DNA of 64,000 nt from a virus (IMGVR_UViG_3300001528_000378:94132-158131); one strand, 5' to 3'; numbered from the stretch's first letter, positions 34,601 to 55,918 are shown. Made by a program: numbers and translations. The notes: generated from the letters alone by a model not told the origin.

Positions 34601-34611
34601 AACCAAATTAG

Positions 34612-34631: not shown

Positions 34632-34667
34632 CAGATAGGTTTGATTTAGTTTAGGAGATTTTGAGTA

Positions 34668-36995
34668 ATGAAATTATTAAACACATTTTTGAACAAAGTT
34701 AGCAAAAAAGATTTTAATAGCATGATTAAATCCGTAGCTGCTTTGAAACTGTTTGCTAGCGGTATGCAAGATGAGGATATTTTAAGGTCGTTATACGTTT
34801 TGTCTTTTAACGATATTCCAAATAAAGATTTTTCTATCAAAGAAGTCATCACCAGAAGAGCTGACGCAAAGAATAAACTTAACTTGGTTGAAAGGCAGTT
34901 GATTGCCAAAGAAGTTTGCAAAGTGTTAAAAAATGCGTCGGCTTTATTTGATTCTGAACTTGCTAACATTACTAACAATGCTAACAATTTTATTCAACCA
35001 CAAAATCCAGAATTTATTAAATCTGCCAAGTTTGGTTTGCTTGCAAATGTTAATGGAAAGTATCATTTGGTAAATCCCTTAACAAAACGTGTGGCTTCTG
35101 AGTTTATTACAGAAGCATCCGATGAAAGTTATGCAAAACTACACGAGTTAGTTGGTCAATACAGGAAAGAGGATAAAATTTCTTATTTTGATGAATCTGA
35201 TGGTATTATGCTCTTAACAGGTACTCCTGAAGTTATCAATGACTTAGAACACAAAGTAAAAGATATTGGGTACTATTGTGAAGTTGTAAATGAAGAAACT
35301 GGTGTAGATGGCGAGTTACCAAATTATACTTTAAAAGTGTTCATTAACAAAGTTGCTTCAAAAGAAGATGGTGTTGAAAAACAAGCAGACTCAGAAGAAT
35401 TTCTAGAACCAACCCAAGGGCCTGAAATTATATTCGAGGGTAAAAATCTTACAGTAAAATTGGTCATTTCAGGTTTAAGCTATGCTAAGGAAAATGGTAA
35501 CTATTCCGGCGGGTATAACTTCTATAACTCATATGACAAATCAATAGCTGTTCAAAGAATTTATAAAAACAATGACGGATATGCTCTTGGTGGTATTGAA
35601 TTTTTTGACGCAGATCCACGCAAACCTTTACCACAAACATTAGAAGAAAATGAGCCTACATATTCCAAATTTGGAATTTCGGAGGATACATGGGCAGAAG
35701 CATTGCAAGCAGTTCAAAATGATTTTCAGAAACGCTATGAAGATGTAAATCCAACACAGGATTTAAAAGGACTCAATGTAAAGGATACCGACGACACTAA
35801 TCCAAATTTAAAAAAAGATAATCCAAACCTTAAATCAGATAATGAGGTGGATAATAATTTGAAAAAAACTACTTCAAAGACCATATCTTTAAAAGCGTCT
35901 GAATCTTTGAATAAATATGGTGAAGTTATTTATTCTGATGAAGATGGGTACTACATTACTGTTCATACAGAAGATGACGCTAAGAGTGGTCTTCAAGTTT
36001 TTATGTGCTGGTTATTTAAGAAATCAGAAAAATATCCAATGGAAGATATTGTAACTTTTGAGAGTGTATCTGATTCTAATTTTAAAAATAATAAAATTAA
36101 TTTTGCCAATAAACTTAGTGAAGATGATATGTCTAACTTTGGCTTAACTAATGAAAAGTTAAGTCATCTATCAGAAGTAGTAAATAATTATATTTCTGAT
36201 AAAATTGAGGGAAATGGGCCTAAAAATGGTGAAGAACCTCTTACTGACATTGATAAAGAATCCAAGGTTGTTAAGAAAGATGACAAGTATCAAGCACAGT
36301 CTGAAAAGGGTAAAAATTTTGGTACATATGATACAAAAGATGAAGCAGAAAAACGTGTTAAACAAATGGAAATGTTTAAGCATATGGATAAAGATGCTTC
36401 AAAAGAAATTCCAATGTTTGTTGTGGATGCTTCCGAAGTGGAAAATGTAAAAGTTTATGCCAATGATAAGTTAATTGGTACTTGTAAAACTGTTTCTGCC
36501 GCTTTTAATTTAAAAGCAGATGAAGAATTAAAGCAGTTTGATATGAAGCAAGAAAAAGATGGGCAAAAAGAATTTGAAACACAGGATGATTCTTTAAAAG
36601 ACGTTTCTGTTCCAGAAGAAAAAGAGGATACATCAGAAGTAAATGAAGCCATGAGTGCAAAGCCAACACAGAATAAAGGAGATTCCTTCTCTGCTTCTGA
36701 GTTTGGGAATAATTTGGCTTATATCAAACAGAATAATCCAGAAGATTTTGAAAGCATTATGGCAAACCTTAAACAGCTAATGGTTGGCGACCAAAAACCA
36801 ATTTATGATTTTTTGGAATTATGGTCTCAAAATAACTTTCAAAATTTTACAGAAACAACTCGTATGGATCCTACATATAACAGGCACTCTCAATATCAAG
36901 AACAACTAAAAAATAATGTTCTACCAAAAGTAATGGAAATGTCAGAGTATAAAAAAGCAATGGAAGAAAAAGTGTCGGCTGAAAAGGGTGCTTAA
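34668..36995 (+). CDS. Acidic modular putative internal head protein
   Basis: Repeated K/V-x-A(S) motifs; KGKNFGTYDTKDEAEKRVKQME module; head-gene neighbourhood. Confidence 0.55.
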   Translation: MKLLNTFLNKVSKKDFNSMIKSVAALKLFASGMQDEDILRSLYVLSFNDIPNKDFSIKEVITRRADAKNKLNLVERQLIAKEVCKVLKNASALFDSELANITNNANNFIQPQNPEFIKSAKFGLLANVNGKYHLVNPLTKRVASEFITEASDESYAKLHELVGQYRKEDKISYFDESDGIMLLTGTPEVINDLEHKVKDIGYYCEVVNEETGVDGELPNYTLKVFINKVASKEDGVEKQADSEEFLEPTQGPEIIFEGKNLTVKLVISGLSYAKENGNYSGGYNFYNSYDKSIAVQRIYKNNDGYALGGIEFFDADPRKPLPQTLEENEPTYSKFGISEDTWAEALQAVQNDFQKRYEDVNPTQDLKGLNVKDTDDTNPNLKKDNPNLKSDNEVDNNLKKTTSKTISLKASESLNKYGEVIYSDEDGYYITVHTEDDAKSGLQVFMCWLFKKSEKYPMEDIVTFESVSDSNFKNNKINFANKLSEDDMSNFGLTNEKLSHLSEVVNNYISDKIEGNGPKNGEEPLTDIDKESKVVKKDDKYQAQSEKGKNFGTYDTKDEAEKRVKQMEMFKHMDKDASKEIPMFVVDASEVENVKVYANDKLIGTCKTVSAAFNLKADEELKQFDMKQEKDGQKEFETQDDSLKDVSVPEEKEDTSEVNEAMSAKPTQNKGDSFSASEFGNNLAYIKQNNPEDFESIMANLKQLMVGDQKPIYDFLELWSQNNFQNFTETTRMDPTYNRHSQYQEQLKNNVLPKVMEMSEYKKAMEEKVSAEKGA

Positions 36996-37699
36996 TGGAA
37001 GTAATAAAAGTAAAAACGGTAGAAGAATTACCTAGTTCTGTTATTGATGAGATTAGAAGGCTCTATCTTGAAGACGGGATGAGCCCTATTCTCATTATCA
37101 AACAAATAGAGAAGAACTTTGGGTATGCTCTACCTGGATTACATACACTTGTTACTTACTTAAAAAGCATTAAACCAGCATTATCATCAGAACCTGACTT
37201 ATCTGACCCGTCGGATTTTGAAGAACCAACACCAACTACACTTGCTCCATTTACAGGAAAAGCCATATCAGTAGATACTTCATCTGTTAAATCTCAAAAT
37301 GAGACTCTAAAAGAGTTAATGAAAAATAAGATTGAGTTTTTACAGAATAAATCCTTGAGTGAAGAGTTTGATAAAGACACAGAGCAAATTCTACAAAGAT
37401 ATATTTTGGAGTTCACTAAACTTACACAAAATGAAGTAAAAATCAAGGACGATTTTAAAGATACTGATAAAGTTGCTTTAACAGATGTAAAGTTCTATAT
37501 TAATAAAATAATGTCCAGTATGAGGTCATGCTTATCAAAGCATGTTCCAGATAAAGTGGACGAAATTTTTAAGGATTTAAAAATACAATTAGATTATACA
37601 TTAAGGGATATAGTAGACCCTCATGTTTATTCCTCACAGTCTAGTATTGACTATGAGAAAAATTTAGAAAAGGAAAATAATAATGACAAAAAAATTTGA
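36995..37699 (+). CDS. N-terminal HTH protein, candidate terminase small subunit
   Basis: IDEIRRLYLEDGMSPILIIKQI HTH-like segment plus helical body. Confidence 0.35.
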   Translation: MEVIKVKTVEELPSSVIDEIRRLYLEDGMSPILIIKQIEKNFGYALPGLHTLVTYLKSIKPALSSEPDLSDPSDFEEPTPTTLAPFTGKAISVDTSSVKSQNETLKELMKNKIEFLQNKSLSEEFDKDTEQILQRYILEFTKLTQNEVKIKDDFKDTDKVALTDVKFYINKIMSSMRSCLSKHVPDKVDEIFKDLKIQLDYTLRDIVDPHVYSSQSSIDYEKNLEKENNNDKKI

Positions 37700-38924
37700 T
37701 GTTAAGTATCAGTTTACAAAGGTTGCACAGGATATGTACAACTTGTATGATTCCTTTAAAAAAGAGGGGTCTTTTAAAAACACAAAAGAATTGTGTGATT
37801 TTCTTGTAAATACTCGTGGTGGTGCTTCCCTTAACACTGACACCTATGAAATGCTTTCTGGTATGGAAATTGGTGATTCTTTGGGTGTTACAAGCAGTGC
37901 ATTAGAAATTACAAAAACAGCGAAAGTACAAGGTATTGAGCCTTGGAAAATTGCAAATGTGGATGGCCAAGAAGTTTTTGTTTCTGCTTCTACTGGTTGT
38001 GAAGTAGAAGATGACGAAGAAGAAAAACTGCATAAAAAGGCTTCTTTGAATAAAGTAAAACATACATATAAAGTTGCTATTCATACAGGTACTTTGGCAA
38101 AAACTGCTGCTGCTCATGGTATTTTAGAAAATGACGGTTACTGTGATGATCAGTTATATATTAATCCAGGTAATCCAGATACAGTTGTTGTGACAGTTGA
38201 GTCTGATGAAACACCCTCCCAAGTAAAAAATCACTTTTTAAATAAAATGAATAAGGATTTCTTAGGGTTAGATAGTGATGACATTGAGTGTTGCCATGAC
38301 TACTGTAATTGTGGACAACAAATTTTTGATTTTCCAGAAATGAAGGAAAATGAGTTCGTACTCCTTATTCCAAATAACAATCCCATGTTTGGTTCTGAAA
38401 AAGATTTAAAGGAATATGTGGATGCAAATAATTTCCCAAATTTTAAAGTGTGTGCTTCAAATGGTTCTACAGTTTATGATGAGGCCATGAGGGACGCTCT
38501 AAATGAAGCAAATAATATTGAACCACATAAAGATGTTCATGTAGAAGCAAAAACAGTTTTTGAAGATACAAATACAGGTGAAGTGTTTACACCAGAACAG
38601 TTAGAATCTGATGCAAACAAGGCAAATCGTTCATTAAAAATGAAGGACTTAAATGCTTCTATTAAGGATTTGTTTAGCAAAGAAGCAACCGTCGATTTGG
38701 CCTTAGCGGATAAAAACTTGCTAAGAGCTGCTATGCATTATTTTAACTTTGAAAAGGTAGCCTACTTATCAGATGACTCCTTTACCATTAAAGCCGGTGA
38801 TGCAGTTATCACAGTGGATAATGACAAAGCAACAATGCTACCACTTGCCTTGTTTAATGATAGGGCACTTGGGGAAGACTCACAGGTAAAAGAAGAAACT
38901 AAAACAGATTCTATTTTGGGGTAA
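37683..38924 (+). CDS. Putative internal head protein
   Basis: KVA/KTA/KKAS/KEA motifs; acidic. Confidence 0.5.
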   Translation: MTKKFDVKYQFTKVAQDMYNLYDSFKKEGSFKNTKELCDFLVNTRGGASLNTDTYEMLSGMEIGDSLGVTSSALEITKTAKVQGIEPWKIANVDGQEVFVSASTGCEVEDDEEEKLHKKASLNKVKHTYKVAIHTGTLAKTAAAHGILENDGYCDDQLYINPGNPDTVVVTVESDETPSQVKNHFLNKMNKDFLGLDSDDIECCHDYCNCGQQIFDFPEMKENEFVLLIPNNNPMFGSEKDLKEYVDANNFPNFKVCASNGSTVYDEAMRDALNEANNIEPHKDVHVEAKTVFEDTNTGEVFTPEQLESDANKANRSLKMKDLNASIKDLFSKEATVDLALADKNLLRAAMHYFNFEKVAYLSDDSFTIKAGDAVITVDNDKATMLPLALFNDRALGEDSQVKEETKTDSILG

Positions 38925-38929
38925 GTGTT

Positions 38930-39625
38930 ATGCCAACAGGAACAAATTTTGGTGATGCAAATAAATCCAAATCTAATAATGATAAAAAAGTATGGAAGGG
39001 TGTAAAGCAAGACCCAAAAAGTGGTAAATTTATTGTTTATATTACAGAATCTAATGAAAGGGTTTTTCCTACTTTGGATGAAGCAGTAAACCACTTGGTT
39101 GAGGCATCCTACTCTAATTATATTACAAAAGAAGCCGGTTCCCCAGAATATTCAGGTGTAGAGCGTGGACAGAAAAATCTAGATGGTGTAAAACAAGTTC
39201 AGATTACAAGAAAACTTGTTCAGGATTCAACAACAGGTGACTGGAAAGTAAAAGAACGCAGACGGTATGATGTTATCAAACAAAATGCAGGGGATGCCAA
39301 GTCGACTTGGAAAAACATCAATGAGGAAAAGGAAGAAGCAAAAGAAATTGAAAATCCTTTTGATGAATCAAATAAAAGTGTTGAAGATTCAAAAGAAGTA
39401 GAAAAAGAATCTTCTCTTGATAAAGATTTTAAGTTAGAGCCAATATGTAAGTGTTCACATTGTGGTGCATTTATTTTTCCACCTAATATGGATTATTATT
39501 TTGATAGACAAAATCTTGCAGATGCTTATTGTCCTGCCTGTGGGTATGGTTTAGACGAAATGGGAAATACTAGTTGGCAAGATAACACACAGTCGGTTGA
39601 TAATTTGATAAAAGGCTACAAATAA
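38930..39625 (+). CDS. Putative head protein with C-terminal Zn ribbon
   Basis: CSHC...CPAC; VEAS/KEAG motifs. Confidence 0.5.
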   Translation: MPTGTNFGDANKSKSNNDKKVWKGVKQDPKSGKFIVYITESNERVFPTLDEAVNHLVEASYSNYITKEAGSPEYSGVERGQKNLDGVKQVQITRKLVQDSTTGDWKVKERRRYDVIKQNAGDAKSTWKNINEEKEEAKEIENPFDESNKSVEDSKEVEKESSLDKDFKLEPICKCSHCGAFIFPPNMDYYFDRQNLADAYCPACGYGLDEMGNTSWQDNTQSVDNLIKGYK

Positions 39626-39930
39626 TGAATAGAGACTATTTTGAAATTTTAACTATGCTTGCAGGTGGAAATGCAAACAGGATGTATGATTTATTTTTAA
39701 TGTATAAAGGCTATACAAAAAAAGATTATGAGTCTTTTAAAAAGGCTGTACGTTCTGTTTTAATGTATGGTTTAATTGAAAAAGTAGATAATCATTACCC
39801 CTTGTTTTTTGGTGATACAAGAGTTAAACTAACTAATAAGGGTTTTGACGCTCTTGATTTCTATGAGATAAAATTTTACAAGGGAACATCAGAAGCTAAG
39901 TTTATTGATTCCGAGTTTTTAGGTATTTGA
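39625..39930 (+). CDS. Winged-helix-like protein
   Basis: GLIEKV...VKLTNKG. Confidence 0.45.
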   Translation: MNRDYFEILTMLAGGNANRMYDLFLMYKGYTKKDYESFKKAVRSVLMYGLIEKVDNHYPLFFGDTRVKLTNKGFDALDFYEIKFYKGTSEAKFIDSEFLGI

Positions 39931-39931
39931 T

Positions 39932-41530
39932 ATGGATTTTAATTGCATAGACATTAGAGAGCTATTAGACAGCACACTAAGTAAATGGTTTGATAATCCT
40001 AGTGATAAAAGCCCAAATTTAGATGATTTGGGCATACAGCTTGATTGTAATGATACAACTAGGGATACTTCAAAGGATACTAAGGAACGCTTTGTAGAGC
40101 CATCTGTTGTTCCACAAGTTTATGTAAATGAGTATAATGAAGATATAGACCCTACTTGGACAGATATGGAAAATGCAAAATGGGCTTCTAAAAAGGAAGC
40201 GGACTTAGTTGGTAATACAGACCAAGAGGGGGATGTTTTCATGTATAATTATAGGTCTGACCAAGAAGAACCAGAAAAAGACTTTTTGACAGATGAAATA
40301 TATCCAAGTGGTATTGAACCTAGGTTTTATATGAAAGCAGAAGACGGACAAAGCCAAACTGGTGTTGTAAATAATGTGGTAGATAATGTAAAAGACAGTG
40401 TGTCAGAGAGTGTAACACCACAAGTTGGCGGAACAGCAGGAACACCTAGGATGTATGGGGCAAAGCCTTCTGGTGATAAACAAATGAAAAACTATGCAGT
40501 TATGACCAATAATTTTAAAAAAGAAGCAGAGGAAAAGTCATTGGAAGATTTGCAATCTGAGTCTGGAGAGCTGCATGATGAATATGATAAACTATATCAA
40601 AAATTAGTAAATGAGGAAGCCTCTGGAATAGCTGGACAGTATGCAGAAGAATACATAGCTAATATAAAAAATAAATTAAATTCTGCTAATATAGTGAGTG
40701 ATATAGCAAATGCACTTTCTACCGATGATGAGTCTGTATTAGACATATACGAGGATAGGTTTGGTGGTAAGCGTACTGATGATATATCTAGTATAAAAAA
40801 TGCTTTTATTAATGATGAAGACTGGTTCAACGAAGAGTATGATTATCAGTATAATGATAAGTTGGACTCTAGCTATAAGGATGCAGAGTATAAAGTAGAT
40901 AATAATAGGGACGATTATCCAGAATTAAAAGATATATATGATAAGATGTGTAAAGTAGATGATGAACTTGAATCTATTGAACTTAAACCTTATGATGATT
41001 TAGAGGATAAAGTAAGGGAAATAGCAAAGGAATATGGTTTTAATGTTGGTCATACAATTTACTCTCAATCGTCAAATAGTAGATATTTATCCTTATTTAA
41101 GGATAATACCTACTATAAAGTAAGGATTTCTAACCATGATGACGTATCTATGTTTGGCCCAAGGGATAGTGATATTACTCTACAAGTGGACAATTCTATG
41201 GAAGAAAATTTATTAGAATTAGAGCAGTTACTTCAAAAGAGTGCCTCATTATTTACAATTACATCCATAGATAAAATAGCAGATTTATTTGGAGATGGGG
41301 TAAGACAAGATGAAATACCCAATTCAGAAAACAAGTTTTTGAATAGGTCCCCCATTACAGAAGTAAATAAAGACCAGAAAGATGAACTGATGGAAAAAGC
41401 AAAAAAAGTAAACAAGCCAGTAACATATATTCCAAAAGACTTAAATTTTCCATTCATTGAGGATGAGATGACTGGAAATAAATTATTTTATAGTGATACG
41501 GATTTTTTGTTAGATGACTTGTATCAATAA
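39932..41530 (+). CDS. Acidic modular putative internal head protein
   Basis: KKEA motifs; SxY...VRISNH module. Confidence 0.55.
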   Translation: MDFNCIDIRELLDSTLSKWFDNPSDKSPNLDDLGIQLDCNDTTRDTSKDTKERFVEPSVVPQVYVNEYNEDIDPTWTDMENAKWASKKEADLVGNTDQEGDVFMYNYRSDQEEPEKDFLTDEIYPSGIEPRFYMKAEDGQSQTGVVNNVVDNVKDSVSESVTPQVGGTAGTPRMYGAKPSGDKQMKNYAVMTNNFKKEAEEKSLEDLQSESGELHDEYDKLYQKLVNEEASGIAGQYAEEYIANIKNKLNSANIVSDIANALSTDDESVLDIYEDRFGGKRTDDISSIKNAFINDEDWFNEEYDYQYNDKLDSSYKDAEYKVDNNRDDYPELKDIYDKMCKVDDELESIELKPYDDLEDKVREIAKEYGFNVGHTIYSQSSNSRYLSLFKDNTYYKVRISNHDDVSMFGPRDSDITLQVDNSMEENLLELEQLLQKSASLFTITSIDKIADLFGDGVRQDEIPNSENKFLNRSPITEVNKDQKDELMEKAKKVNKPVTYIPKDLNFPFIEDEMTGNKLFYSDTDFLLDDLYQ

Positions 41531-41559
41531 TGTGAAGAATATTTAACGAGGAAAACTAA

Positions 41560-43926
41560 ATGGATATTAACAAATTACTTAAAGATGTAAAATCTTTTAA
41601 TAAAGAAGCAGCTATGAAAGAAAATATGCGTATGCTTGCTTTGAAAGACAGTATTGTATTAGATGCTTTTAATGAAGCAAATGTGAAACTTGCTTCTTAT
41701 TTTGGTGGTATTAAACTTGATTCCCCAGAATCTAATTTAACTGAATTTTCTAGAAATAAATTAAGTGGTAAAATGAAAGCAATTCTTTCTGTTTCCACCA
41801 CTGCTGGTTTGAAAAGACTTCCTATTCACTTTGTGGTAAAAGCATCTGTTCCTTATATGGTTGAAACGCCAGAACAAGTTGTTGCTGCTTTGGAAAATGT
41901 GGAAGGCAGCTTGGATAAAGAAGTAAGAGAAATCTTGGAAAAACAAAAAGGTTTAACAGATTATCACAATGAAGATATTGAAGTAAAAGCAGACGGATTA
42001 CCCGGAGATAAGTATAAACAGGTGTGGTTTAAGAAAGATGGTAAGTCAATTTGGGAACCATGGGGACCAATTAGAGATTTAAATGATTTTAATAGAGATT
42101 TCAATGATTGGGTAAATGACTATTTTGAAAGTGAGCCTGATATGAGATATTGTGAAAATTGGGATGAAGCACTTGAAGTCTTAAATACAAAAGGTGCTAG
42201 TGCTCGTGCTGGGTGGTTTACTTTAGAAGATGATGGTGTTGACCCAAATACAACTACAGCGTCAGCCAATTCAAATATCACAGTACAAGCCAAGAAAAAA
42301 GAAATCAATTTAGTTAATAGAGAAAACACAGCTGCTTCTCAATTTCCAGTTAAACTATTGGTTTATCCTAAAACTTATTTACCAGAATTAAAGAAAGGCG
42401 ATGTGGTAAATGTAGGTGGTTTCAAATATAAATATATTGGTGACGAACCTTTATTAAATGGTGATACAGAAAATGGTATCAATGCTCGTTTTGAGTTAAT
42501 GAGGACGGATAAAAAGGCTTCCTTAAGTAAAAAAGCCAAAGTTGAAGAAGACACAGAAAAATGTGCTATCTGTGACGAGTATTTTCCTGTTTCAGATATG
42601 ATAGACGAATCAGATTTTGGGTATGTATGTGATAAGTGCTTTCGTGGTTTAAAATCAAGAGGGGAAGATTTACATAAGAAAGCAGCCGATGATAAAAAAG
42701 AAGAAAAACCTAAAAAATCTGAGGAAGATGAGGATAAAGAACAAAGGGATAAAGACTTCAAAGATAAATTAAAATTTATGCAAGAAGAAAAGCACTTTGA
42801 AGATTTGGACCCAAGCCAATTAATGTCTATGGTGACCACATATAGATATTATCACATGCATTTACCAAAAGAAGCATTAGATGCTATTTCTCAAAGTGCA
42901 GATTCTGCATCTAGGTATATGTCTTCTTTTGATAGTTTGGATGAAGCTTTTGAAGAAGCTACACCTAAAATTATTGAAAGGGTTGTTTCTTCCCCAAAAT
43001 ACTTAGTTGGTGTATTAAAAAACTATTCAGATGATATTAGTTTTGATACTTTACCAAAACAAGTCAAGGATAAACTGATGGGGGATGTTGTAGCTTTGGT
43101 TGAAGTGGTAAATTCTGCCCCAAGTTTGTTAACAGAAGAAGTAGCAGAAAAAATTATTAAAGAAAGTCCTACTGAAGCCGAAACTATCTATTCTACTTTT
43201 GGTACTGTTGAAGAAAAGGGTAAAGGTTGGGATAAAATTAAAGAATGGGCTGAAGAAAAGAAATTAGACCAAGCTCCAACAAATGAAGAGATTGGAATTT
43301 CCCAGGATGATCAACCATATAAGCCTAATGTAAAAAAGGATAAGAGTGTGGATGATGACTATGCTGCTATGGGTACAGAGGAAGATTCTGAACCATATAA
43401 TCCTTCAAACAAGGAAGAAGTTTTAGGACCTAATAAGAATGACTTACAAGTTGAGGACGAGGAAGATAAAAAGGCAAGTGTAGACAACAGCCTTAAGAAA
43501 GAGGCAGAAGCTACTGACTTTTCAACTGATTTGTCCAAAATTAAATTAGACATTTCTAGTAAGTATATTTCTAATATTTTAAAAGAGCAAGGAATTACAG
43601 TTGGTCAAGAGAGTGAATCCTACGCCATTAATTCTGTTGAATCTGATGGTGCTTTAAAATGGAAATTTGATTTTAGTGGTGGTACAGATGGTATTGAATA
43701 CTTCCAAATAAATGTTCCAGATCAAACTATTCCTGTTAAAGTAGAATACTATACAGCAGAAGAATACAACAATGAAAATGGTGGGGAACCCACAACTACT
43801 GATATTCAATTACCTTTGTCTAATGTAACAGTAGTGGCACAAACAATGAACACTATGGATGGTATGACTTTATACCCGAAATCTCTTGAAGTAAATGATA
43901 ATGGTGGAGTAGAGGTTTCTTTCTAA
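41560..43926 (+). CDS. Acidic modular putative internal head protein
   Basis: KKAS/KKAA/KKEA motifs bounding a Zn finger (CAIC..CDKC) and helical repeats. Confidence 0.55.
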   Translation: MDINKLLKDVKSFNKEAAMKENMRMLALKDSIVLDAFNEANVKLASYFGGIKLDSPESNLTEFSRNKLSGKMKAILSVSTTAGLKRLPIHFVVKASVPYMVETPEQVVAALENVEGSLDKEVREILEKQKGLTDYHNEDIEVKADGLPGDKYKQVWFKKDGKSIWEPWGPIRDLNDFNRDFNDWVNDYFESEPDMRYCENWDEALEVLNTKGASARAGWFTLEDDGVDPNTTTASANSNITVQAKKKEINLVNRENTAASQFPVKLLVYPKTYLPELKKGDVVNVGGFKYKYIGDEPLLNGDTENGINARFELMRTDKKASLSKKAKVEEDTEKCAICDEYFPVSDMIDESDFGYVCDKCFRGLKSRGEDLHKKAADDKKEEKPKKSEEDEDKEQRDKDFKDKLKFMQEEKHFEDLDPSQLMSMVTTYRYYHMHLPKEALDAISQSADSASRYMSSFDSLDEAFEEATPKIIERVVSSPKYLVGVLKNYSDDISFDTLPKQVKDKLMGDVVALVEVVNSAPSLLTEEVAEKIIKESPTEAETIYSTFGTVEEKGKGWDKIKEWAEEKKLDQAPTNEEIGISQDDQPYKPNVKKDKSVDDDYAAMGTEEDSEPYNPSNKEEVLGPNKNDLQVEDEEDKKASVDNSLKKEAEATDFSTDLSKIKLDISSKYISNILKEQGITVGQESESYAINSVESDGALKWKFDFSGGTDGIEYFQINVPDQTIPVKVEYYTAEEYNNENGGEPTTTDIQLPLSNVTVVAQTMNTMDGMTLYPKSLEVNDNGGVEVSF

Positions 43927-43946
43927 TAAGGAGAATTTAGTTTAAT

Positions 43947-45101: not shown

Positions 45102-45505
45102 ATATGCCTTTATTTACTTATGATAATTTAAAAAAGTATAATCCTCAGGGTAATAATATAGACCCTGAGGAAGTATACACCAATAAGAAACTGCAAGATG
45201 ATTATACCAAACTTACAAGTAATGGTGAAACTATTGCAGTTATAATTCCTTTTCACAAAGAAAATGTAGATATGAAAAATATAACTACAGAGGACAATGG
45301 AACTGTCAATATTTCTGAACTTATTAGAGATAATAATGGTGAAACAGATATTAGTTATGAAGAGGAAGAAGACCCAGAAAATAAAGAGCGTGGTGAATTT
45401 AGAAAAAGATTAAATGACTCAAAGCAACACATGGTTGATGTGGAAGAAAATCAGAATGTATATACAGAGTCTTCATTTGAGTTTACCACCATTGATAAGA
45501 TTTGA
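45092..45505 (+). CDS. Hypothetical acidic protein
   Basis: Operon-coupled ORF. Confidence 0.5.
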   Translation: MEINMPLFTYDNLKKYNPQGNNIDPEEVYTNKKLQDDYTKLTSNGETIAVIIPFHKENVDMKNITTEDNGTVNISELIRDNNGETDISYEEEEDPENKERGEFRKRLNDSKQHMVDVEENQNVYTESSFEFTTIDKI

Positions 45506-46383: not shown

Positions 46384-46415
46384 TTTACATTTTAGTATTA
46401 TATAGCAGGTAATAT

Positions 46416-48047
46416 ATGTTAGTAGGAAATGAGCTGAGAGATTTTATTATTAAAGCCACAGCAGAAGCAGTTACAGTTAATTCTTCCCTAGATAACTGGG
46501 CTAAGAGTATTGGTGTTCATTTGTGGAAAAATCAGCTTGAAATTCTTGATACCATATTAAATCCTGCTATTAAAAATATAGCCATCACGGCTGCTCGTGG
46601 TGCAGGTAAAACATTTATTATTTCAATCGCATGTATTAAAATGTGTGTTGAAAATAGAGGCTATCGTGTTCTTTTATTTGGTCCAAAAGCAGAGTTGGCA
46701 AACCGTATTTTAGCAGACGGTATTAGACCATTATGTTTAAACAATCCAATACTTTCAGCAGAAGTTGACTGGGATGTTTGTACAAAGAAGGAATTTAGGT
46801 TTAAGAATGGTAGTTGGGTAAGATGTTTGGGTGCTTCTGAAACCACACAGGTTGAAGGGTACCATGCAGATATGATAGTAACCGACGAATCACATCAGAT
46901 TTCCACCCAGTTTTATAATTTACGTGTATCACCAATGAACTCGGATTCCAAAAATCCAAAGAATATTAAAATTGGTATTACAATGTATGATAACCACTTT
47001 AGGCAGTCTTGTAAATCATCTAAGTGGAAATGGTTAAATTATCCATGGTATAAGTGTGAAAATATTTATAACCCGAATGATTTGATAAATATTAATGGTG
47101 TAGACTATCCAAATGATATTGTAGATAGGATGCCCCTATCTATGAAGTTAAAGAGATGGCCAAATAACCCGGAAGTTCATTTTGAATCCTCAGTGAACCT
47201 TAGCGAAGAAGATTTCAAAACACAATACGAGATGCAGTGGGTAGACTCTATATCGGGTCTTTTAACTGGTGAAGACCAAGCCAAGTTAGAGGGTGAGCAC
47301 GACTATCTATACTGTGGCCTACCTGATGAAACTTATTATTTTGGTCTAGACTGTGCTGGGGGTTCTCTTATTAAAGAGGGTGTAGACCGTGACTATACGG
47401 AGCTTGTTATTGGAAGGATTGCAGAAAACCATCAAAAGCAAGTAGTTGCACTATATCAGTGGCAGGGTGATTTAACAGTTCAAGTAGAAGAAATAATGCA
47501 TATTATTACAAATGTATTTCCATGTGCATTTGGATGTGCAGACTATTCTACAATGGGTACGGCTATAGTGGACCAGTTTTTATCAAAGCATATACCAATC
47601 GCGGGTATTGCTTATAAGAAAACAGACCCAATATCTGGTAAAAACTATAAAAACTCTCTATTTGACCAGTTTTTATATGAGTTGAGGCATGATAGGTTTA
47701 AGTATCCCTCACTAAAATCTATGTTATCGGAAGACGACCAGATGACAACAAAGGAAGCACAACTACTCAACAAGCATTTAATTGAGTGGGGTGCAGTTGA
47801 AAGAAGAAGGAAAGCAGTTGGTATAAATGATGACATTTCTGCACCAAAAGGTGGTGGGTATCATGATGACTGTGTAAACGCAACTGCATTATTTGTTTGG
47901 GCGTGTGATAAATGTGATGAAGATAAGAAAAGAGTAGGTTTTTTCAAAAAAGATTTTAAGTTTGTAATGCCAAAATTTGGTTCTACAACAACACAGGCAA
48001 GAAATAATTTAGGTAAACCAAGTGGTTCTATGTGGGGTCAGAGATGA
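46416..48047 (+). CDS. terL: Terminase large subunit
   Basis: Walker A AARGAGKT, Walker B VTDE, nuclease GLDCAG and HDDCVNA; directly upstream of portal. Confidence 0.9.
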   Translation: MLVGNELRDFIIKATAEAVTVNSSLDNWAKSIGVHLWKNQLEILDTILNPAIKNIAITAARGAGKTFIISIACIKMCVENRGYRVLLFGPKAELANRILADGIRPLCLNNPILSAEVDWDVCTKKEFRFKNGSWVRCLGASETTQVEGYHADMIVTDESHQISTQFYNLRVSPMNSDSKNPKNIKIGITMYDNHFRQSCKSSKWKWLNYPWYKCENIYNPNDLININGVDYPNDIVDRMPLSMKLKRWPNNPEVHFESSVNLSEEDFKTQYEMQWVDSISGLLTGEDQAKLEGEHDYLYCGLPDETYYFGLDCAGGSLIKEGVDRDYTELVIGRIAENHQKQVVALYQWQGDLTVQVEEIMHIITNVFPCAFGCADYSTMGTAIVDQFLSKHIPIAGIAYKKTDPISGKNYKNSLFDQFLYELRHDRFKYPSLKSMLSEDDQMTTKEAQLLNKHLIEWGAVERRRKAVGINDDISAPKGGGYHDDCVNATALFVWACDKCDEDKKRVGFFKKDFKFVMPKFGSTTTQARNNLGKPSGSMWGQR

Positions 48048-48292
48048 GTACAATAGGTTATATTAAAGGGAAAGTAAGGGATATACAACCAATTTTAGAT
48101 GAAAGTACACAGGTACTCATGGATTGTTTAGAGGAATTGAGGGCTTGTGGTATATTTTCGGAAGAGATAGCTCATATGGCTACTTCAATAGAAAATTTGG
48201 AAAAAGTAAGTAGTTTATTACAAAATAGACTAGATATTTTTAAGGAATATGATAATAGTATTTCGTCAGAAGAAATAGAAGAGGATAAATAG
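48032..48292 (+). CDS. Small helical protein
   Basis: Between terminase and portal. Confidence 0.5.
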   Translation: MGSEMSTIGYIKGKVRDIQPILDESTQVLMDCLEELRACGIFSEEIAHMATSIENLEKVSSLLQNRLDIFKEYDNSISSEEIEEDK

Positions 48293-48298
48293 CACACT

Positions 48299-50824
48299 AT
48301 GGCAAAGAATTTGATTACAGGTAACACAGGCAGTAAAAGAAGTGGTAAATTTTCAAAGTATGCAAATCCTACTTTTATTACAAAGAATGAAAATCTGATG
48401 ACTGGTGTGGTAAAGTCTGATTTTGGTAAGACTGCATACTATGATACCGAGCAAACAATTCCTAATTTTTACACACCTGAACTTACACCAGAAACTTACT
48501 TACTCCCTAGATCGCGTGCGGAAATTTTACGTTGGAGCAGATTATTCTTCAATCTAGACCCCTATATTAATTCCATTCTTACGATGCACGCGCAGTACCC
48601 AATTTCCAATTTTAGGCTTGCATATAAGGATAAAGATACAGAAGCATTTTTTAACAGAAAATTATTTGATAACAAAGAGTTTAGTTGGATAGATTTTTTG
48701 GAACAAGTGATGCTTTCCTATTTCAAGCTAGGGGAGGCTGTTGTTTGGGCAGATTGGTCTGAATCAAAGGGTACCTGGAACGGTTTTTCATTAATAGACC
48801 CATCTTTAATTGAGTATAAGGAAGACCCAATGTCTGGTGATGTTGAGATGTCTATTATTCCCACTAGAGAACTCAAACAAATGCTTGCAGATGGTTTGAA
48901 GCAGGGTAGAACGGATATCCCAGTAGAATATATTAGATGCGTACAAGAAAACCAAAAAATTCCATTGGATGCAACTGGTACGGAACCAAACTATTTAACT
49001 GGTAAGAAGTATTCCCCAGCCAAAGTTTTTATGCTTGCCAGGAAGACAGATCCTGGCGCGACACGTGGGACACCAATTACACAGTGTGCTAGGTATAGTA
49101 CAAAGATAAAGTTATTAGAGGGTACAACCAAGTGTATTGGTGACTTATACAAAGAGGGTGCAAAAGATTTCTGGGTGTATTCTATTGATGACAATGGAAA
49201 CATTATACCAAAAAAAGCGTCTAAAGTAATTTATCAGGGTAAAAAACTCACATATGATATAACACTAGATAATGGGGAAGTATTAGGTTTCACATCAGAC
49301 CATCCATTTCTTATGAGAGATGGAAGTTGGAAAGAGGTGAAAGACCTAAAACCTGGTGATGAGTTATTTTCAGATAAAAAGGTTTCTGTTGTCTCAATAA
49401 ATAAAAGCATAGAAGAGGATGTATATGACATTGAATCTGTGGAAGATACACATGTATTTGGTGTTTTGTGTAATAATGGTTCAATGGTATTTGTGCATAA
49501 CTGTCTTTTTAAATGCGTAACAGGGGATACACATATTGCATTACTAGATGGTACAAATCCAACTATTAAAGAGCTTGCTGAATTTGGTAAAAAAGATTTC
49601 TGGGTATATGGTGCAGATCAACAGGGGAATATCGTTCCTGCAAAAGCAGAGTGTGCTGTCTATATTAAAGATGAGGAGACAGTAGAGGTTTTATTAGATA
49701 ATGGTTCTAAAATAAGATGTACAAAAGACCACCCACTCTTTTTAAGAGATATGACTAAGGTAGAAGCACAGAACTTGAAACCAGGTGATTCTTTAATGCC
49801 TTTAAAGGAGGATCTCAGGGTTGTATCAGTAATAGATACAGGTAAAGTAGAGCCTGTATATTGTGTTGCAAATGCAGGAGAAAATCATAATTTTATGATT
49901 TCATTTGAAGATGGAAGTGGTATATTATCTGGAAATACACTTATCTATCAAGATAAAATCAAACTTGCTCAAATCGCATGTGCAGACAGATTACATCTCC
50001 CAATCGAGATATGGACCATTGGTTCATACACAGGCGACCCACAAACTTCCATTATCCCAGATGATGCAATGATAGGTGAGGTAAGGGAAGCTATTAGACA
50101 GGCAACTATGCAACCACCATTTTCTATATTTGTTCCACCATACATTAAGTATGAAGCAGTTGGTGTAAACGGAAAATTGTTGTCCGTTTATGAAGACTTG
50201 GGGTATGTAGAAAATTGTATTTTTGTAGGTTTGGGTGTAAATAAGAACTTAATTTTAGGTGCAGGTCCGTCCTTCTCATCTAGTAAACAAACTTCCTTAT
50301 TTAAGTTAATTAAGACATATAAGATGTTAAGACTTAAACTGGAAGCCTTTATTAAAAGGTATATTTTGCTCCCCATTGCAAAAGCCAACGATATTAAGGA
50401 TGAATATGGTGATTATGTTGTCCCAGATATTGAGTGGGAAGAAAGTTTGCAACCAGAGCAAGATGTAGAAAAATTTAATAATGTGCTGAAACTATGGGAT
50501 AAAGGTTTGGTTTCTACAACCACAGTTTATGAATACTTCCCAGGCAAGTTAGATATTAATCTAGAAAAACAAAGACTTGAGAAGGAACGTGGCTCTATCT
50601 GGGATAAAGGTACTGATCGTTTGGGTAGTAAGGATCAAAGATCAGATTTAAATGAAAAGAAACCAGATACAGGAAATAAGCCTAGTATTCCAACCCCAAG
50701 TGATGGTTCAAAGCCAGCAGAGGGGCTACCACCCCCAATGGGTGGGGATGTAGAAGAGATAGGTGAACCTGAGGTTCCAGAAACCTCAGAAGAATCCCCA
50801 GTAGAAACACCAGCAGAACAATAG
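48299..50824 (+). CDS. Portal protein with two tandem inteins
   Basis: Position; LDPYINS, YFKLGEA, RGTP, GLGV; two Hint domains. Confidence 0.85.
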   Translation: MAKNLITGNTGSKRSGKFSKYANPTFITKNENLMTGVVKSDFGKTAYYDTEQTIPNFYTPELTPETYLLPRSRAEILRWSRLFFNLDPYINSILTMHAQYPISNFRLAYKDKDTEAFFNRKLFDNKEFSWIDFLEQVMLSYFKLGEAVVWADWSESKGTWNGFSLIDPSLIEYKEDPMSGDVEMSIIPTRELKQMLADGLKQGRTDIPVEYIRCVQENQKIPLDATGTEPNYLTGKKYSPAKVFMLARKTDPGATRGTPITQCARYSTKIKLLEGTTKCIGDLYKEGAKDFWVYSIDDNGNIIPKKASKVIYQGKKLTYDITLDNGEVLGFTSDHPFLMRDGSWKEVKDLKPGDELFSDKKVSVVSINKSIEEDVYDIESVEDTHVFGVLCNNGSMVFVHNCLFKCVTGDTHIALLDGTNPTIKELAEFGKKDFWVYGADQQGNIVPAKAECAVYIKDEETVEVLLDNGSKIRCTKDHPLFLRDMTKVEAQNLKPGDSLMPLKEDLRVVSVIDTGKVEPVYCVANAGENHNFMISFEDGSGILSGNTLIYQDKIKLAQIACADRLHLPIEIWTIGSYTGDPQTSIIPDDAMIGEVREAIRQATMQPPFSIFVPPYIKYEAVGVNGKLLSVYEDLGYVENCIFVGLGVNKNLILGAGPSFSSSKQTSLFKLIKTYKMLRLKLEAFIKRYILLPIAKANDIKDEYGDYVVPDIEWEESLQPEQDVEKFNNVLKLWDKGLVSTTTVYEYFPGKLDINLEKQRLEKERGSIWDKGTDRLGSKDQRSDLNEKKPDTGNKPSIPTPSDGSKPAEGLPPPMGGDVEEIGEPEVPETSEESPVETPAEQ
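49085..49501 (+). mobile_element. Mini-intein 1 in portal (139 aa)
   Basis: Q|CARYST...TSDHPF...VYDI...VHN|C. Confidence 0.88.
49514..49936 (+). mobile_element. Mini-intein 2 in portal (141 aa)
   Basis: K|CVTGDT...TKDHPL...VYCV...HNF...SGN|T. Confidence 0.88.
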
Positions 50825-50834
50825 GAGATATAAT

Positions 50835-51020: not shown

Positions 51021-51068
51021 TAATTTGAAATTGGTTTACACTTTATTATTATATGTAAGGGTAAAAGT

Positions 51069-52074: not shown

Positions 52075-52087
52075 GAGATATAATTAA

Positions 52088-55000
52088 ATGGCATTTTTTA
52101 AATATGGTGCTACGGTAAATATTAGAAAGCAAGCTTCCTTGGATATTATTGCAAAAGATGTCCCAGAAGTTAGCCATACAGCCGATAAGATTTCTGCAAA
52201 GAAAGATGACAATTTTGTTTATTTCTGGACTCGTGCCGTTTCTGCAGATGTGCCAAATTTAAACTCAGATTTATTTCCACTAGACGAACTTAAAAAGGCT
52301 TATCCTACTTTTATAGGTAGGGGTTTATACATGGACCACAATGCCCAGTCTGTGGCCAATGCAGTAGGTAAGGTTTTTGATGCTAAATTATTAGAAGATC
52401 CTACTGCCACTGACGAAGAGGGCAGGTACTATGTTGGTTGTTTGTGTGGTGTGGATAAAACGACACACCCAGATATTGCAGCCAAAGTAGCACATGGTGT
52501 CATTGATAGTGTATCAATGGGAGCTTCCTGTGGTTCTTGTGAGTGTGGGATTTGTCATAGGGTATGCCATACTCCTGAGGAGTTCTGTGTTCATTTACAG
52601 CATCAAGGTCAAATTGACCCAGAAACTGGTAAGAAATGTATCTCTATTAACAGAGATGTGAACTTCTCAGAATTATCCTTAGTGGGTGTACCTGCTGACC
52701 CAATGGCTAAAATGCAACAAGTGTTTGCAGACTTTGTGGGTGGATTAAGAAAATCTGCTTCATTAGATAAAGAAGCAGAAAATTCGTTTTTAGAAAAATT
52801 CTCATTTAGTATTCCTTGTGGAAATGAGAATATATGTGAAACATTATTTAATGTTCTTACAGGATATAAAAAACAAGGTATTTCGGACCTATCTATGGAT
52901 GGTTCTATTTTAAAGTTATCTGTTGAAGCAAAAAATGAAGAATTAGCTAAGCAGAAACTGGAAAAAATTAGTGAAGAGCAGGGGTTAGGTGTTGAACAAC
53001 CCCTTGAAAGAGAGGAAAATTTAATGCCTAAGGAAGAAATTAAACCTGTTGAAAAAATGGAAGAAACCAAAGTAGAAGAAAAGGTTGCTTCAAAAGAAGA
53101 AAAGTTAAGCATCAACAAAAAAGCAGATGAAGAACAAGAAAGCTCAAAAACATATACATTTGATGAATTATCTCCAGAAGCAAAAGAAAGAGTTATTATT
53201 GTAGAAGGGGATCGTTACATGGAATGGTTTTGGAAGAATTTTCAGACAGACCCAGAAATTTATATTAAACCAGAATTAATAACAAAATATAACCTTGATT
53301 TAGATATACTCGAATTAGGTGCAGATACACCTGGCGGTTCCAGTAGAACTTATGGTACTGCTGAATTGAAGTCTGGTTTTCTTCATGGTTCATTCAGCAA
53401 CATTATTCGGCCAATAGTTGAACGTGTTGTTAGAGAAGCAGCAAAGGAATCTAAATATGTAGCAGATCACTTAGAAGATTATATTGACTTAGGTTGTGGA
53501 GACATGTACTGGGATAGTGATTACTTTGCTCCATATAATGGGTTTTCCGATATAGATGATGTACCGTCTAGTTTATCAAATGATATTGCAGAAGCCTTAA
53601 ATAATGAGGCTGTTCCACAAATTGAAAAAGCATTAGAAGAAATAGCCGATAGTATTACAGAAGCGATTAATATAGAAGAAGAGTATGCTTATTCTGAGGA
53701 TAATGCCAGAGATATGGCTGAGGCTAATCAGGTTAAATTTAATGAAGACGGATCATTTGCAAAAGTATCACAGTTTACTAGAAAGTTGTGTGTTCATAAA
53801 ACAGCAAAAAGTCGTTTATTGAAGAATAGAAAACCAGAGGATAAAAACAATTCACACAAAGTTGAATCCTCTATAACCCAATTAAAAGAAGTAAAAGCAA
53901 ATGTAGAAGATGACGAACCTACTGTGTCACCCGAAACAATCAAAAGGTATAAGGAACAAGGATTTGTTGAGAAAGGTACCCCAGATTATGACGAATTTTA
54001 TAATGCTGGCTTTACTTTGAAGAAGTCTTTTGTTGGTGAAGAAGACGGGAAAGACTTATATAATGTTGTAGAAATTGAACGTGAATCTTCAAAACCTCAA
54101 TCAAACGAGGTAAAAGAAGTGAAAGCAGAAGAAAATAAAGAAACCAAGAAGGAAGATTTGGTTCCTGGTGTATCCAAAGAGGATGCCAAAAAAGATATTA
54201 AACATGATTTGGCCAAAGAAAAAGATGAAGCCAAAGGTGGGGAAGACGAAACCAAAGATATTGAAACCTTAGAAAAAGCAATTAAAGAAACAGATAAGGG
54301 AGCATTAACCAAGGTTATCGACTTATTGAAAAAGTTTATTGGTGGTGAAACTAAAGAGGGTGAAGATTTGAAGGATTATAAATCTGACGATTTGGTTAAA
54401 AAGTTGGAAGATAAGCCAGCTGATAAAAAGGCTTCCCTAGAAGAACCAGTAAATAATGTGGTTAATACAGTTGCAGAACCTGTTGTGAACCATGTTGAAG
54501 CCAAACCAGAAGTTCCTGCTCAACCAGTTCCAGAAGTGAAAGAAGAAGTGGAAGAGAAAAAGGAAGAAGTGAAACCTTCCAAGGATGTCAAAACCAAGGA
54601 AGATGCCGTAAAGGTGTTGGAGGATGTTCTGAAAGCTGGTGAGGAAGCCAATGTGGAAGAATTAGGTAAAGTTTTGGATTTCTTAAAATCCGATAAAAAG
54701 GAAGAAAAGGAAGATGTGGAAAAGAAGGCAGACTTTGACTCTGCTGTGTCAAATGAAGACCTAGAATTTGTTGAAAAGAGGGATGAGGCAGAGACATTGT
54801 TAAATAAAAGGCTACTAGAAATAATGGAAGAAGCAGAACGCTACGGTATTGATGCACAAAAATTTCTTTCTGAACCAAATGGATTATCTCATTTGCTTGA
54901 TGAGTTAGAAGAAATGGAATCATATTCACATGACGTTGAATCTTCAAAAACTCAATCAAACGAGGTAAAAGAAGTGAAAGCTGGTGAGGAAGCAGAATCC

Positions 55001-55918
55001 AAAAAAGAAGCCAAACCTTTGTTTGCCAATGTAACCAGAGTTTCTTTACTCAAAACGGCCAATTTAATTGACAGCAAATGGGTATTCCACTTCAAAGGAA
55101 CAAATAAAGTAGCCTGCCTCAGTGTAAAGAATTTATTACCAGGTGTATCCGAAAAGGTTGCCTACTTAACTTCAAAAGAATTTTATAACGAGATGATGGA
55201 CACCTTAACAAAGAAACAAGCATTTGACGGTGAAGCCGTTAAACAAATTGTTGCAAACTACAATGAAAAAATCAAAGTAGGTTCAGATGAAGCCAAATCT
55301 CAAGTTTCCAAAGCCACATCCAAGGCCAAAAATGAAACGGACGGGAAGAAAGTTTCAGATACCAGCAAGGCCGTAGACACAAAATTAATGGATGATGGTA
55401 AAGCACAGAAACAAGACAAAGTAAACTCAAAAGAAGACGCTGGTGCTGTTGAGTCTGCTACAAAGAAAGCCCCTGCTGAAACTGATATTAAGGTATCTGC
55501 TGAATTGGAAGCCAAGTGCAAACAATTAACGGCTGCCTTAGAAGCAAAAGAAGCAGAGGTTTCACAAATGAAAATGCAGCAAGAATTAGCTGCAAAAACT
55601 GCAAAAGCCAGACAGATTGTGGAAAAATCCATTAAATGTGGTTTGGTACAATGCAATGAGACTTTTAGACAGGAAGAGTTGTTAAAGCAAGCCTCTCCGT
55701 TGAAAGCCAAAGAAGAAGCCATGAAAAGAACGGCAGATTCTATGGTAGCGGATTTGTTGGCCCTATCTGATGAAGAATTGGATAAACAAGCCTCTTACTT
55801 GTCCAATTTTAAGGTTGAAGCAGAAGTTAAACAGCTTAAACCTATTAAAATCGAAGCATCTTGCGAAAAATCGGAAGATGAGGACCTCATTAAAGCACTT
55901 GGTGCTGAGATGTGGTAA
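52088..55918 (+). CDS. Prohead protease fused to extra modules and a C-terminal scaffold
   Basis: NxNxDxF, YMDH, SVSMG, CxxCxxC..C.H, FSELSLVGVPADP; coiled-coil C-terminus. Confidence 0.85.
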   Translation: MAFFKYGATVNIRKQASLDIIAKDVPEVSHTADKISAKKDDNFVYFWTRAVSADVPNLNSDLFPLDELKKAYPTFIGRGLYMDHNAQSVANAVGKVFDAKLLEDPTATDEEGRYYVGCLCGVDKTTHPDIAAKVAHGVIDSVSMGASCGSCECGICHRVCHTPEEFCVHLQHQGQIDPETGKKCISINRDVNFSELSLVGVPADPMAKMQQVFADFVGGLRKSASLDKEAENSFLEKFSFSIPCGNENICETLFNVLTGYKKQGISDLSMDGSILKLSVEAKNEELAKQKLEKISEEQGLGVEQPLEREENLMPKEEIKPVEKMEETKVEEKVASKEEKLSINKKADEEQESSKTYTFDELSPEAKERVIIVEGDRYMEWFWKNFQTDPEIYIKPELITKYNLDLDILELGADTPGGSSRTYGTAELKSGFLHGSFSNIIRPIVERVVREAAKESKYVADHLEDYIDLGCGDMYWDSDYFAPYNGFSDIDDVPSSLSNDIAEALNNEAVPQIEKALEEIADSITEAINIEEEYAYSEDNARDMAEANQVKFNEDGSFAKVSQFTRKLCVHKTAKSRLLKNRKPEDKNNSHKVESSITQLKEVKANVEDDEPTVSPETIKRYKEQGFVEKGTPDYDEFYNAGFTLKKSFVGEEDGKDLYNVVEIERESSKPQSNEVKEVKAEENKETKKEDLVPGVSKEDAKKDIKHDLAKEKDEAKGGEDETKDIETLEKAIKETDKGALTKVIDLLKKFIGGETKEGEDLKDYKSDDLVKKLEDKPADKKASLEEPVNNVVNTVAEPVVNHVEAKPEVPAQPVPEVKEEVEEKKEEVKPSKDVKTKEDAVKVLEDVLKAGEEANVEELGKVLDFLKSDKKEEKEDVEKKADFDSAVSNEDLEFVEKRDEAETLLNKRLLEIMEEAERYGIDAQKFLSEPNGLSHLLDELEEMESYSHDVESSKTQSNEVKEVKAGEEAESKKEAKPLFANVTRVSLLKTANLIDSKWVFHFKGTNKVACLSVKNLLPGVSEKVAYLTSKEFYNEMMDTLTKKQAFDGEAVKQIVANYNEKIKVGSDEAKSQVSKATSKAKNETDGKKVSDTSKAVDTKLMDDGKAQKQDKVNSKEDAGAVESATKKAPAETDIKVSAELEAKCKQLTAALEAKEAEVSQMKMQQELAAKTAKARQIVEKSIKCGLVQCNETFRQEELLKQASPLKAKEEAMKRTADSMVADLLALSDEELDKQASYLSNFKVEAEVKQLKPIKIEASCEKSEDEDLIKALGAEMW
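54083..54981 (+). repeat. 44-bp direct repeat (54083-54126 and 54938-54981, 1 mismatch) encoding ESSK(P/T)QSNEVKEVKA; degenerate third copy ~53861-53899
   Basis: Direct comparison of the sequences. Confidence 0.85.

Follow-up and report, generated by a model that had tools for sequence, protein, structure and literature searches.

Conserved K-x-A-(S/D) sites in a phage protease-scaffold fusion and its acidic neighbors suggest a processing code at the borders of swappable modules

Results

We analyzed a 64,000-nucleotide (nt) stretch, IMGVR_UViG_3300001528_000378:94132-158131, the final 64 kb of one 158,131-bp contig (~33% G+C) from an uncultured gut phage. We refer to this whole stretch as the window and count positions from its first letter. 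Our subject is a block of head-region genes in which a prohead protease fused to a scaffold, together with several neighboring proteins, carries the motif K-x-A-(S/D). The block lies on the plus strand and starts at a strand switch near 33.8-34.6 kb, with ten open reading frames first (ORF1-ORF10, 34668-46383; hereafter the ten ORFs). After these come, in order, the large terminase (TerL), an ORF of 86 amino acids (aa), the portal, a conserved 252-aa gene, the protease-scaffold fusion, a decoration-like protein, and the major capsid protein (MCP). Gene order places the protease-scaffold gene in the head module, adjoining the MCP region.

The MCP shares 33% identity with gp27 of Bacillus phage G, and by sequence comparison the phage is a distant relative of phage G. 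Scans of IMG/VR yielded three related contigs, and two syntenic relatives, G001 (a 170.5-kb IMG/VR contig) and L022 (a 165-kb JGI contig), match the block ORF for ORF. Nine of the ten upstream ORFs encode acidic proteins (isoelectric point [pI] 4.3-5.2). Searches of Pfam, PHROGs, and NCBIfam gave no usable match for any of the ten ORFs, and Pfam searches with the syntenic proteins of the two relatives returned just DUF5661, a weak WbqC match, and an HNH gene.

The protease-scaffold gene (52088-55918) encodes 1276 aa, with a protease core at aa ~40-213. The first ~213 residues match the PHROG head maturation protease (E 3.9e-14), while a sequence search of the PDB with the protease gave no match. 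We modeled residues 1-330 with AlphaFold2 (AF2) on the basis of 31 homologues, and the core (aa 40-200) was confident (predicted local distance difference test [pLDDT] 80-90). The top three Foldseek matches in the PDB were chains of T4 gp21 (5jbl; prob 1.0, TMt 0.60-0.65, E 1e-3), followed by weak matches (prob 0.5-0.85) to the proteases of HSV-2, KSHV, PRV, VZV, HCMV, and EBV. Thus, as modeled, the 52088 product is a protease-scaffold fusion with the T4 gp21/herpes assemblin fold, in agreement with an earlier note on this DNA, which placed a protease domain at 52088 and stated that HK97-type prohead proteases share the assemblin fold. H84 and S143 (in S-V-S-M-G) are invariant in the 31 homologues and are candidate catalytic residues. 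H169 is also invariant, but lies within an invariant C153/C156/C167/H169 cluster, a possible metal binder. This C-x2-C...C-x-H cluster, an insertion at 52544-52597 (aa 153-169) inside the protease core, is kept in phage G gp19; it may be a zinc site, and H169 could be either catalytic or a metal ligand.

Directly behind the core, at the junction of protease and scaffold, is the site K-S-A-S (aa 222-225; 52751-52762). In the model, R-K-S-A-S 221-225 is part of a linker of low confidence (216-233) that joins the core to a small domain behind it, and K222 and A224 are at least 90% conserved. We compared 120 protease homologues, 38-97% identical over the first 330 aa, using the sequence VPADP as an anchor. 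K-x-A occurs 17-24 aa past VPADP in every distinct homologue sequence that has the anchor, down to 38% identity. The residue that follows varies (S, D, E, G, V, I, or N), as do the surroundings.

The protein contains nine strict sites (K.A[SD]), together with RTAD at 1214 and I-E-A-S 18 aa from the C-terminal end. Closer relatives keep L-D-K-Q-A-S ~43 residues and [IV]-x-A-S 18-20 aa from the scaffold C end. The middle of the scaffold is hypervariable, with lengths of 913-1451 aa among homologues whose first 330 aa show 94% identity or more. In this middle (aa ~345-970, 53120-55000), which differs completely between close relatives, a ~300-aa insert follows K-K-A-D 344, and the segment S-N-E-V-K-E-V-K-A is duplicated. 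The scaffold may carry cargo of its own. A pooled pattern scan over the scaffold homologues was uninformative, with conserved domain motifs dominating.

We counted such motifs in a set made up of the ten ORFs and the protease-scaffold (5164 aa), taking expectations from within-protein shuffles that keep composition (n = 2000) and the other 187 ORFs (44,324 aa) as background. K.AS was found 17 times versus 2.40 expected, and none of the 2000 shuffles reached 17. Counts for K[KQS]AS[LV] were 8 versus 0.08 expected, and for [KR].A[SD] 28 versus 6.4; K.A was also generally high (63 versus 34). The background ORFs were at expectation for both K.AS (15 versus 12.8) and [KR].A[SD] (33 versus 33). The motifs thus exceed what Lys/Ala composition predicts, which the earlier note had set as a condition for its reading, and the impression given there by eye, that they are much less conspicuous in genes such as the terminase, holds for TerL, which has no strict site.

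An unbiased scan of all 8,000 a.bc patterns placed K.AS first (Poisson p 7e-10; lowest shuffle 1.7e-6). When sets of the same size were drawn from real proteins of the genome, ~1% equaled the K.AS level, all via a G-x-K-G repeat protein. Two large minus-strand proteins (22009-24297 and 25096-27714) have eight such collagen-like repeats each, and the G-x-K-G proteins are the only real-protein source of an excess comparable to that of K-x-A-S. Ranking all 198 ORFs singly put the protease-scaffold, ORF6, ORF7, and ORF1 on top, and it is in these four that the strict motif is concentrated. The looser pattern [VLI].AS was weakly enriched (9 versus 4.0, p 0.02), while neither the T4-type [LI].E (73 versus 66, p 0.20) nor the phiKZ-type [ASG].E (110 versus 96, p 0.06) was enriched. 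The plain 4-mer KKAS was not significant against real-protein controls, and we therefore base our claim on the motif with the gap.

The sites do not share one set of codons; Ala is encoded by GCT, GCC, GCA, or GCG and Ser by TCT, TCA, TCC, AGT, or TCG. We therefore rejected a DNA-level signal, such as AAGCTT inside AAA-GCT-TCT; as the site codons differ, selection acts on the peptide.

Conservation was clearest in ORF7 (41560-43926; 788 aa), which has K-K-A-S-L at 318-322 and further sites at aa 374, 637, and 646. Across 66 homologues (30-95% identity), K318, A320, S321, and L322 never vary, and K319 hardly does. The site falls precisely at the border of a conserved domain with a gappy stretch that has more than 260 insertion columns: aa 1-140 and 241-320 are conserved (the latter with column identity of 0.83-0.97), and aa 323-380 are hypervariable. 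In the AF2 model, site 318 follows a strand (308-315) at the start of a low-confidence region (317-392), while K-K-A-S 637 and K-K-E-A 646 end a linker (574-649) before a confident beta domain (650-788). Comparison of this model with the PDB (Foldseek, VIA wide) gave just generic helical-repeat and cystatin/NTF2-like similarities (Z <7), and comparison with BFVD gave small unnamed phage proteins.

ORF1 (34668-36995; 775 aa, pI 4.8) has strict sites at aa 88, 228, 238, and 575. Its conserved N-terminal part (aa 21-220) and conserved C-terminal domain (aa 621-775) lie on either side of a hypervariable middle (aa ~401-615), and the family alignment (47 sequences) has up to 1326 insertion columns just before the C-terminal domain. 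This domain is preceded by (N/E)-K-K-A-D in nearly all family members and by N-L-K-A-D in the window. A similar layout was found for ORF6 (39932-41530; 532 aa, pI 4.3), where conserved ends (aa 1-220 and 439-532) flank a module at aa ~206-435 (nt ~40547-41236). The ORF6 sites are KWAS83, KEAD88, KSAS436, and KIAD448, and K-[IL]-A-D at 448 is kept in three genomes.

Among the smaller proteins, ORF3 (37683-38924; 413 aa) carries H-K-K-A-S-L (aa 117-122) behind an acidic run. The KKASLN sequence is kept in all three genomes, and both relatives have K-x-A-D-L at a second junction, just ahead of the conserved C-terminal part. ORF8 (43947-45101; 384 aa) contains an inserted module (aa 195-293) behind P-K-K-E-A-D (aa 191-196). 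The interval 45092-46383 contains ORF9, which has 137 aa and no site, and the 293-aa ORF10; the ORF10 site, D-K-K-A-S-V (aa 147-152), is kept in L022 and in a further genome, L003, and deleted in G001. Sequence evidence therefore indicates that the K-x-A motif of the protease junction is also enriched and conserved in ORF1, ORF3, ORF6, ORF7, and ORF10. Like ORF9, the remaining three of the ten ORFs lack a strict site. These are ORF2 (36995-37699; 234 aa), which is acidic, has no family match in Pfam, PHROGs, or NCBIfam, and is 84% identical to the syntenic G001 gene; and ORF4 (231 aa) and ORF5 (101 aa), which span 38930-39930, are syntenic, and are 55% and 74% conserved. The V-E-A-S of ORF4 is located inside a conserved domain.

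Comparison with G001 and L022 revealed conserved ends surrounding swapped middles. Of the alignment break-points, 6/17 (four distinct sites) fall within three residues of a strict site, where chance predicts ~0.03-0.07 per break-point; the module swapping at motifs proposed in the earlier note is thus seen in these genomes. The alignment of ORF1 with a relative restarts at 578, on K-D-A-S 575-578. Segments of the ORF6 alignment end at 85 and start at 88 and at 439, beside K-W-A-S 83, K-E-A-D 88, and K-S-A-S 436. The ORF8 insert begins at 198, after K-E-A-D 193.

Some of these modules also exist elsewhere. That of ORF6 corresponds to free-standing proteins of 240 and 247 aa (P0340 and P0341), and these homologues stop just where K-S-A-S 436 begins. 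The ORF8 module (nt ~44529-44825), which is missing from G001 and present in L022, has a fold match to stand-alone phage proteins of ~100-120 aa (TM 0.79). The earlier note had flagged the ORF8 module and a stretch that forms part of the ORF6 module as resembling domains of phage early or polyvalent proteins. They are mobile domains with borders that touch the motif, as it had described, but the proposed likeness was unmatched in Pfam, PHROGs, and NCBIfam. In one relative, such a slot holds a known protein. The ORF7 homologue P0217, from a 155,695-bp contig, contains an ArdA domain (PF07275; aa 558-717, E 3.1e-32) with which the protein ends, ten residues behind L-K-K-S-A. The protease homologue P0073 also has a longest contig of 155,695 bp, which suggests that the two proteins come from one phage. 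Pfam detected no PF07275 domain in ORF7 of the window.

Phage G (NC_023719) provides an independent replicate. In its head module (gp2-gp25, 1980-22468), K.AS occurs 12 times versus 2.15 expected, a count reached in 0/2000 shuffles, compared with 3 versus 1.14 in gp28-gp65. The K-x-A-S sites include one close to each end of the portal (aa 55 and 625), four in the 930-aa gp7, and two past the gp19 core. The protease, gp19, is a separate gene product that is 33% identical to the window protease and has E-K-V-A-S and L-K-I-A-S after the core; it ends in an L-P-W-S tail, as do some fused scaffolds. We found no report of K-x-A protease specificity in the literature, and a recent multi-omics paper on phage G lists virion proteins and no cleavage sites.

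As an indication of timing, a late-promoter-like motif, GGTTTACA-N6-TATTATAC, lies at 34613-34640 (+), 38 nt before the ORF1 start. In the form AGTTTACA-N6-7-TATTATAT, it stands ahead of ORF1 (34613), TerL (46384), and the 51069 ORF (51035), which precedes the protease gene, and also ahead of the minus-strand gene ending at 33762 (copy at 33763, -). The consensus for these four genes, (A/G)GTTTACA-N6-7-TAT(T/A)ATAT, is positioned 1-38 nt upstream. Elsewhere in the genome, another four copies stand at the start of blocks, including a block with a baseplate wedge and a tail protein. Since the motif is common to the ten-ORF block and to virion genes, it argues for their co-expression. The divergent intergenic region that holds two of these copies (33763-34667, 905 bp) also contains long AT-only repeats (~34330-34520) and an alternating CG/TG run (~34537-34565) that is conspicuous in a stretch of 31% G+C.

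TerL (46416-48047), identified by PHROG and Pfam matches, lacks a strict site. The portal (48299-50824; PHROG and Pfam) has its sole strict site inside a Hint/intein insert. Judged by the motif, TerL, the 86-aa ORF, and the portal (together 46416-50824) would not be substrates. This insert, which may comprise two elements, adds ~277 residues that match Hint/intein-splicing domains; the portals of both relatives (564 and 570 aa) are without these residues. For the 252-aa gene at 51316, a MuF-like assignment made by eye from an H-x-x-C-x-C tail found no database support. The decoration-like protein (55941-56468) carries KKAD, which we rejected as a site, as the motif is not conserved and is probably there by chance. 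The MCP gene (56493-57428) matches the PHROG major head protein (E 2e-22), and directly downstream is a gene for a 562-aa HNH-type homing endonuclease (57547-59235; PHROG E 6e-104).

Discussion

An interpretation that we consider probable, short of firm, is that 34668-57428 is a late head module in which the protease recognizes K-x-A-(S/D) and neighboring proteins are loaded into the capsid and cut at the borders of their modules. Cleavage is well supported by comparison, in that the motif is conserved directly behind the protease core and at domain borders in the neighbors. Recognition would most likely require Lys-x-Ala followed mostly by Ser or Asp, with the cut probably after Ala. In this model, ORF1, ORF6, and ORF7, all of them large and acidic, would enter the prohead via their conserved end domains, as would probably ORF3, ORF8, and ORF10. 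The activated protease would free itself from the scaffold at aa 224/225 and trim the scaffold, also at sites close to its C-terminal tail, the presumed shell-binding part. It would also cut the neighbors at module borders, freeing the hypervariable cargo modules, which would then remain with the DNA and pass into the host. Put most simply, K-x-A-(S/D) would be the recognition site of the prohead protease in this lineage and have three uses: to free the protease, to dismantle the scaffold, and to cut carrier proteins at the borders of swappable modules. ArdA, the domain found in one relative, would be one such module, and the idea of an anti-defense payload rests on that relative. Some pieces may be carrier or scaffold debris. 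The proposal of the earlier note, a protease-processed cargo system, is thus partly supported.

Several observations weigh against this interpretation. The strict site is absent from ORF2, ORF4, ORF5, and ORF9, as well as from TerL and the portal outside its intein; the earlier note had described nearly every ORF upstream of the protease as an acidic mosaic bounded by motifs, and while the acidity (9/10) and the mosaicism stand, the statement was too broad for the motif. In the close relative G001, which has far fewer strict sites, K.AS was found 6 times versus 2.3 expected (p 0.03), and scaffolds of distant relatives showed no overall K.A excess (290 versus 243). A number of sites are found within predicted helices or conserved domains, such as KLAS43 and VKAS93 of ORF7; hence, the match between motifs and domain boundaries that the earlier note expected is seen in the AF2 linkers of ORF7 and the protease, but not at these positions. 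The flanks of the sites are no more polar than the rest of the proteins (0.374 versus 0.365). A near-consensus host-type promoter with an extended -10 (34169-34197, +) points into the block, making early expression possible. None of the modules in the window matched a named family in Pfam, PHROGs, or NCBIfam, including when Pfam was searched to E 10 with the two flagged modules. Finally, very acidic proteins would be odd companions for packed DNA.

The last two points bear on an alternative in which the proteins are cut at K-x-A but serve in assembly, as core proteins such as extra scaffold, size determinants, or propeptide carriers, with their fragments expelled as DNA enters rather than injected. 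Fragments of the T4 core proteins gp22, gp67, and gp68 are expelled in this way when DNA enters. Strong acidity (pI 4.3-5.2) would fit such a role, and so would the scaffold, which has the most sites and has variable inserts of its own. In SPN3US, propeptides measuring 111-254 aa are lost after multiple cuts (PMC10052503). Together, the acidity and the absence of any recognizable effector domain from the window (Pfam, PHROGs, NCBIfam) keep this alternative alive. However, hypervariable, horizontally swapped modules with free-standing homologues would be unexpected for structural core parts, and a known anti-restriction protein, ArdA, fills such a slot in a relative. As both the ArdA domain and the free-standing homologues favor effectors, we think it rather unlikely that the pieces are assembly debris as a whole.

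We give less weight still to the possibility that K-x-A-(S/D) is a docking or targeting signal, or a favored linker at module borders, that is not cut, leaving the proteins whole or otherwise processed. The wide variation of the residue after Ala at the protease junction and the unexceptional polarity of the flanks would fit an uncut motif. Yet the motif stands straight after the protease core, where gp21, SPN3US gp245, and herpes assemblin cut themselves free; invariant Lys and Ala around a free residue are a typical pattern of protease subsites; and several copies are in the scaffold, which must be removed. A pattern with no function, left by Lys/Ala/Ser-rich low-complexity linkers and shared ancestry, would explain the general K.A surplus and why KKAS is no rarer than the top 4-mers of real-protein controls, but is very improbable given that composition-preserving shuffles never reach the observed count, that codons differ between sites, that the sites are invariant over 66-120 homologues amid otherwise unalignable stretches, and that phage G repeats the result.

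If processing at K-x-A-(S/D) is confirmed, there would be a specific rule of cleavage for a lineage about which little is known and to which phage G, the sole megaphage in culture, belongs. The motif-bounded slots would then reveal what these phages carry into the cell and would be a rich source of candidate anti-defense proteins, such as ArdA in one relative and the many unnamed modules that have free-standing homologues.

The K-x-A code and the modular layout are a variation on the processed head proteins of T4 and phiKZ. T4 gp21, with IPI-III and Alt, offers the same protease fold and, likewise, a site common to the protease and to head-loaded proteins. The T4 cargo protein IPI* is an anti-restriction protein, a parallel to the ArdA domain in the relative (PMC5512222). 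The T4 sites (capsid targeting sequence) are L/I-x-E, in contrast to the K-x-A-(S/D) found here. T4 cargo also consists of small basic proteins with a short N-terminal tag, whereas the putative cargo here would be cut from large acidic multi-module proteins at internal sites, and the protease is fused to the scaffold, unlike in T4. In phiKZ and SPN3US, the proteases gp175 and gp245 act at A/S/G-x-E sites in many head proteins, ejection proteins included (PMC10052503). SPN3US proteins have long conserved N-terminal parts with several sites, and the protease shortens itself by trimming a C-terminal extension (PMC10052503). In both systems the site is present in many head proteins, but here it is also found between swappable internal and C-terminal modules, and the lineage is different, with a capsid protein closest to that of phage G.

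The layout also recalls the polyvalent proteins, which are multi-module, fast-shuffling proteins encoded beside portal and terminase genes, for which transport inside the capsid has been predicted (Iyer et al., 2017; PMC5512222). ArdA is among their catalogued domains (PMC5512222). The domains that define polyvalent proteins, of which two or more are required, were not found in the ten ORFs or the protease-scaffold (Pfam, PHROGs, NCBIfam). Unlike polyvalent proteins, those described here have no built-in zincin-like peptidase that we could detect; instead, the prohead protease would process them at a common motif.

A close parallel to the fusion itself comes from herpesviruses, where the assemblin-scaffold precursor (UL26/UL80) is cut at its R and M sites, (V/L)-x-A|S. 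Like this precursor, the 52088 product has an N-terminal protease fused in frame to a scaffold, an Ala-containing site straight after the protease domain, and a second Ala site, [IV]-x-A-S, 18-20 aa from the C end, both of which are predicted cuts. It differs in that P3 is mostly Lys, that the site also occurs in neighboring proteins, and that the invariant H169 lies in a Cys-rich cluster. A broader and more doubtful proposal is that all members of the lineage with phage G-like heads, 150-kb gut phages and the 500-kb megaphage alike, use an assemblin-like K/V-x-A|S/D code as a cassette system. Foreign domains placed between sites in a carrier or scaffold would be loaded, cut free, and injected as a fast-evolving anti-defense payload, and the Ala-Ser preference and the layout of release and maturation sites would be ancestral with herpesviruses and not convergent. 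The protease-scaffold fusion is a close phage parallel to the herpesvirus assemblin precursor and is relevant to the common origin of the two assembly systems.

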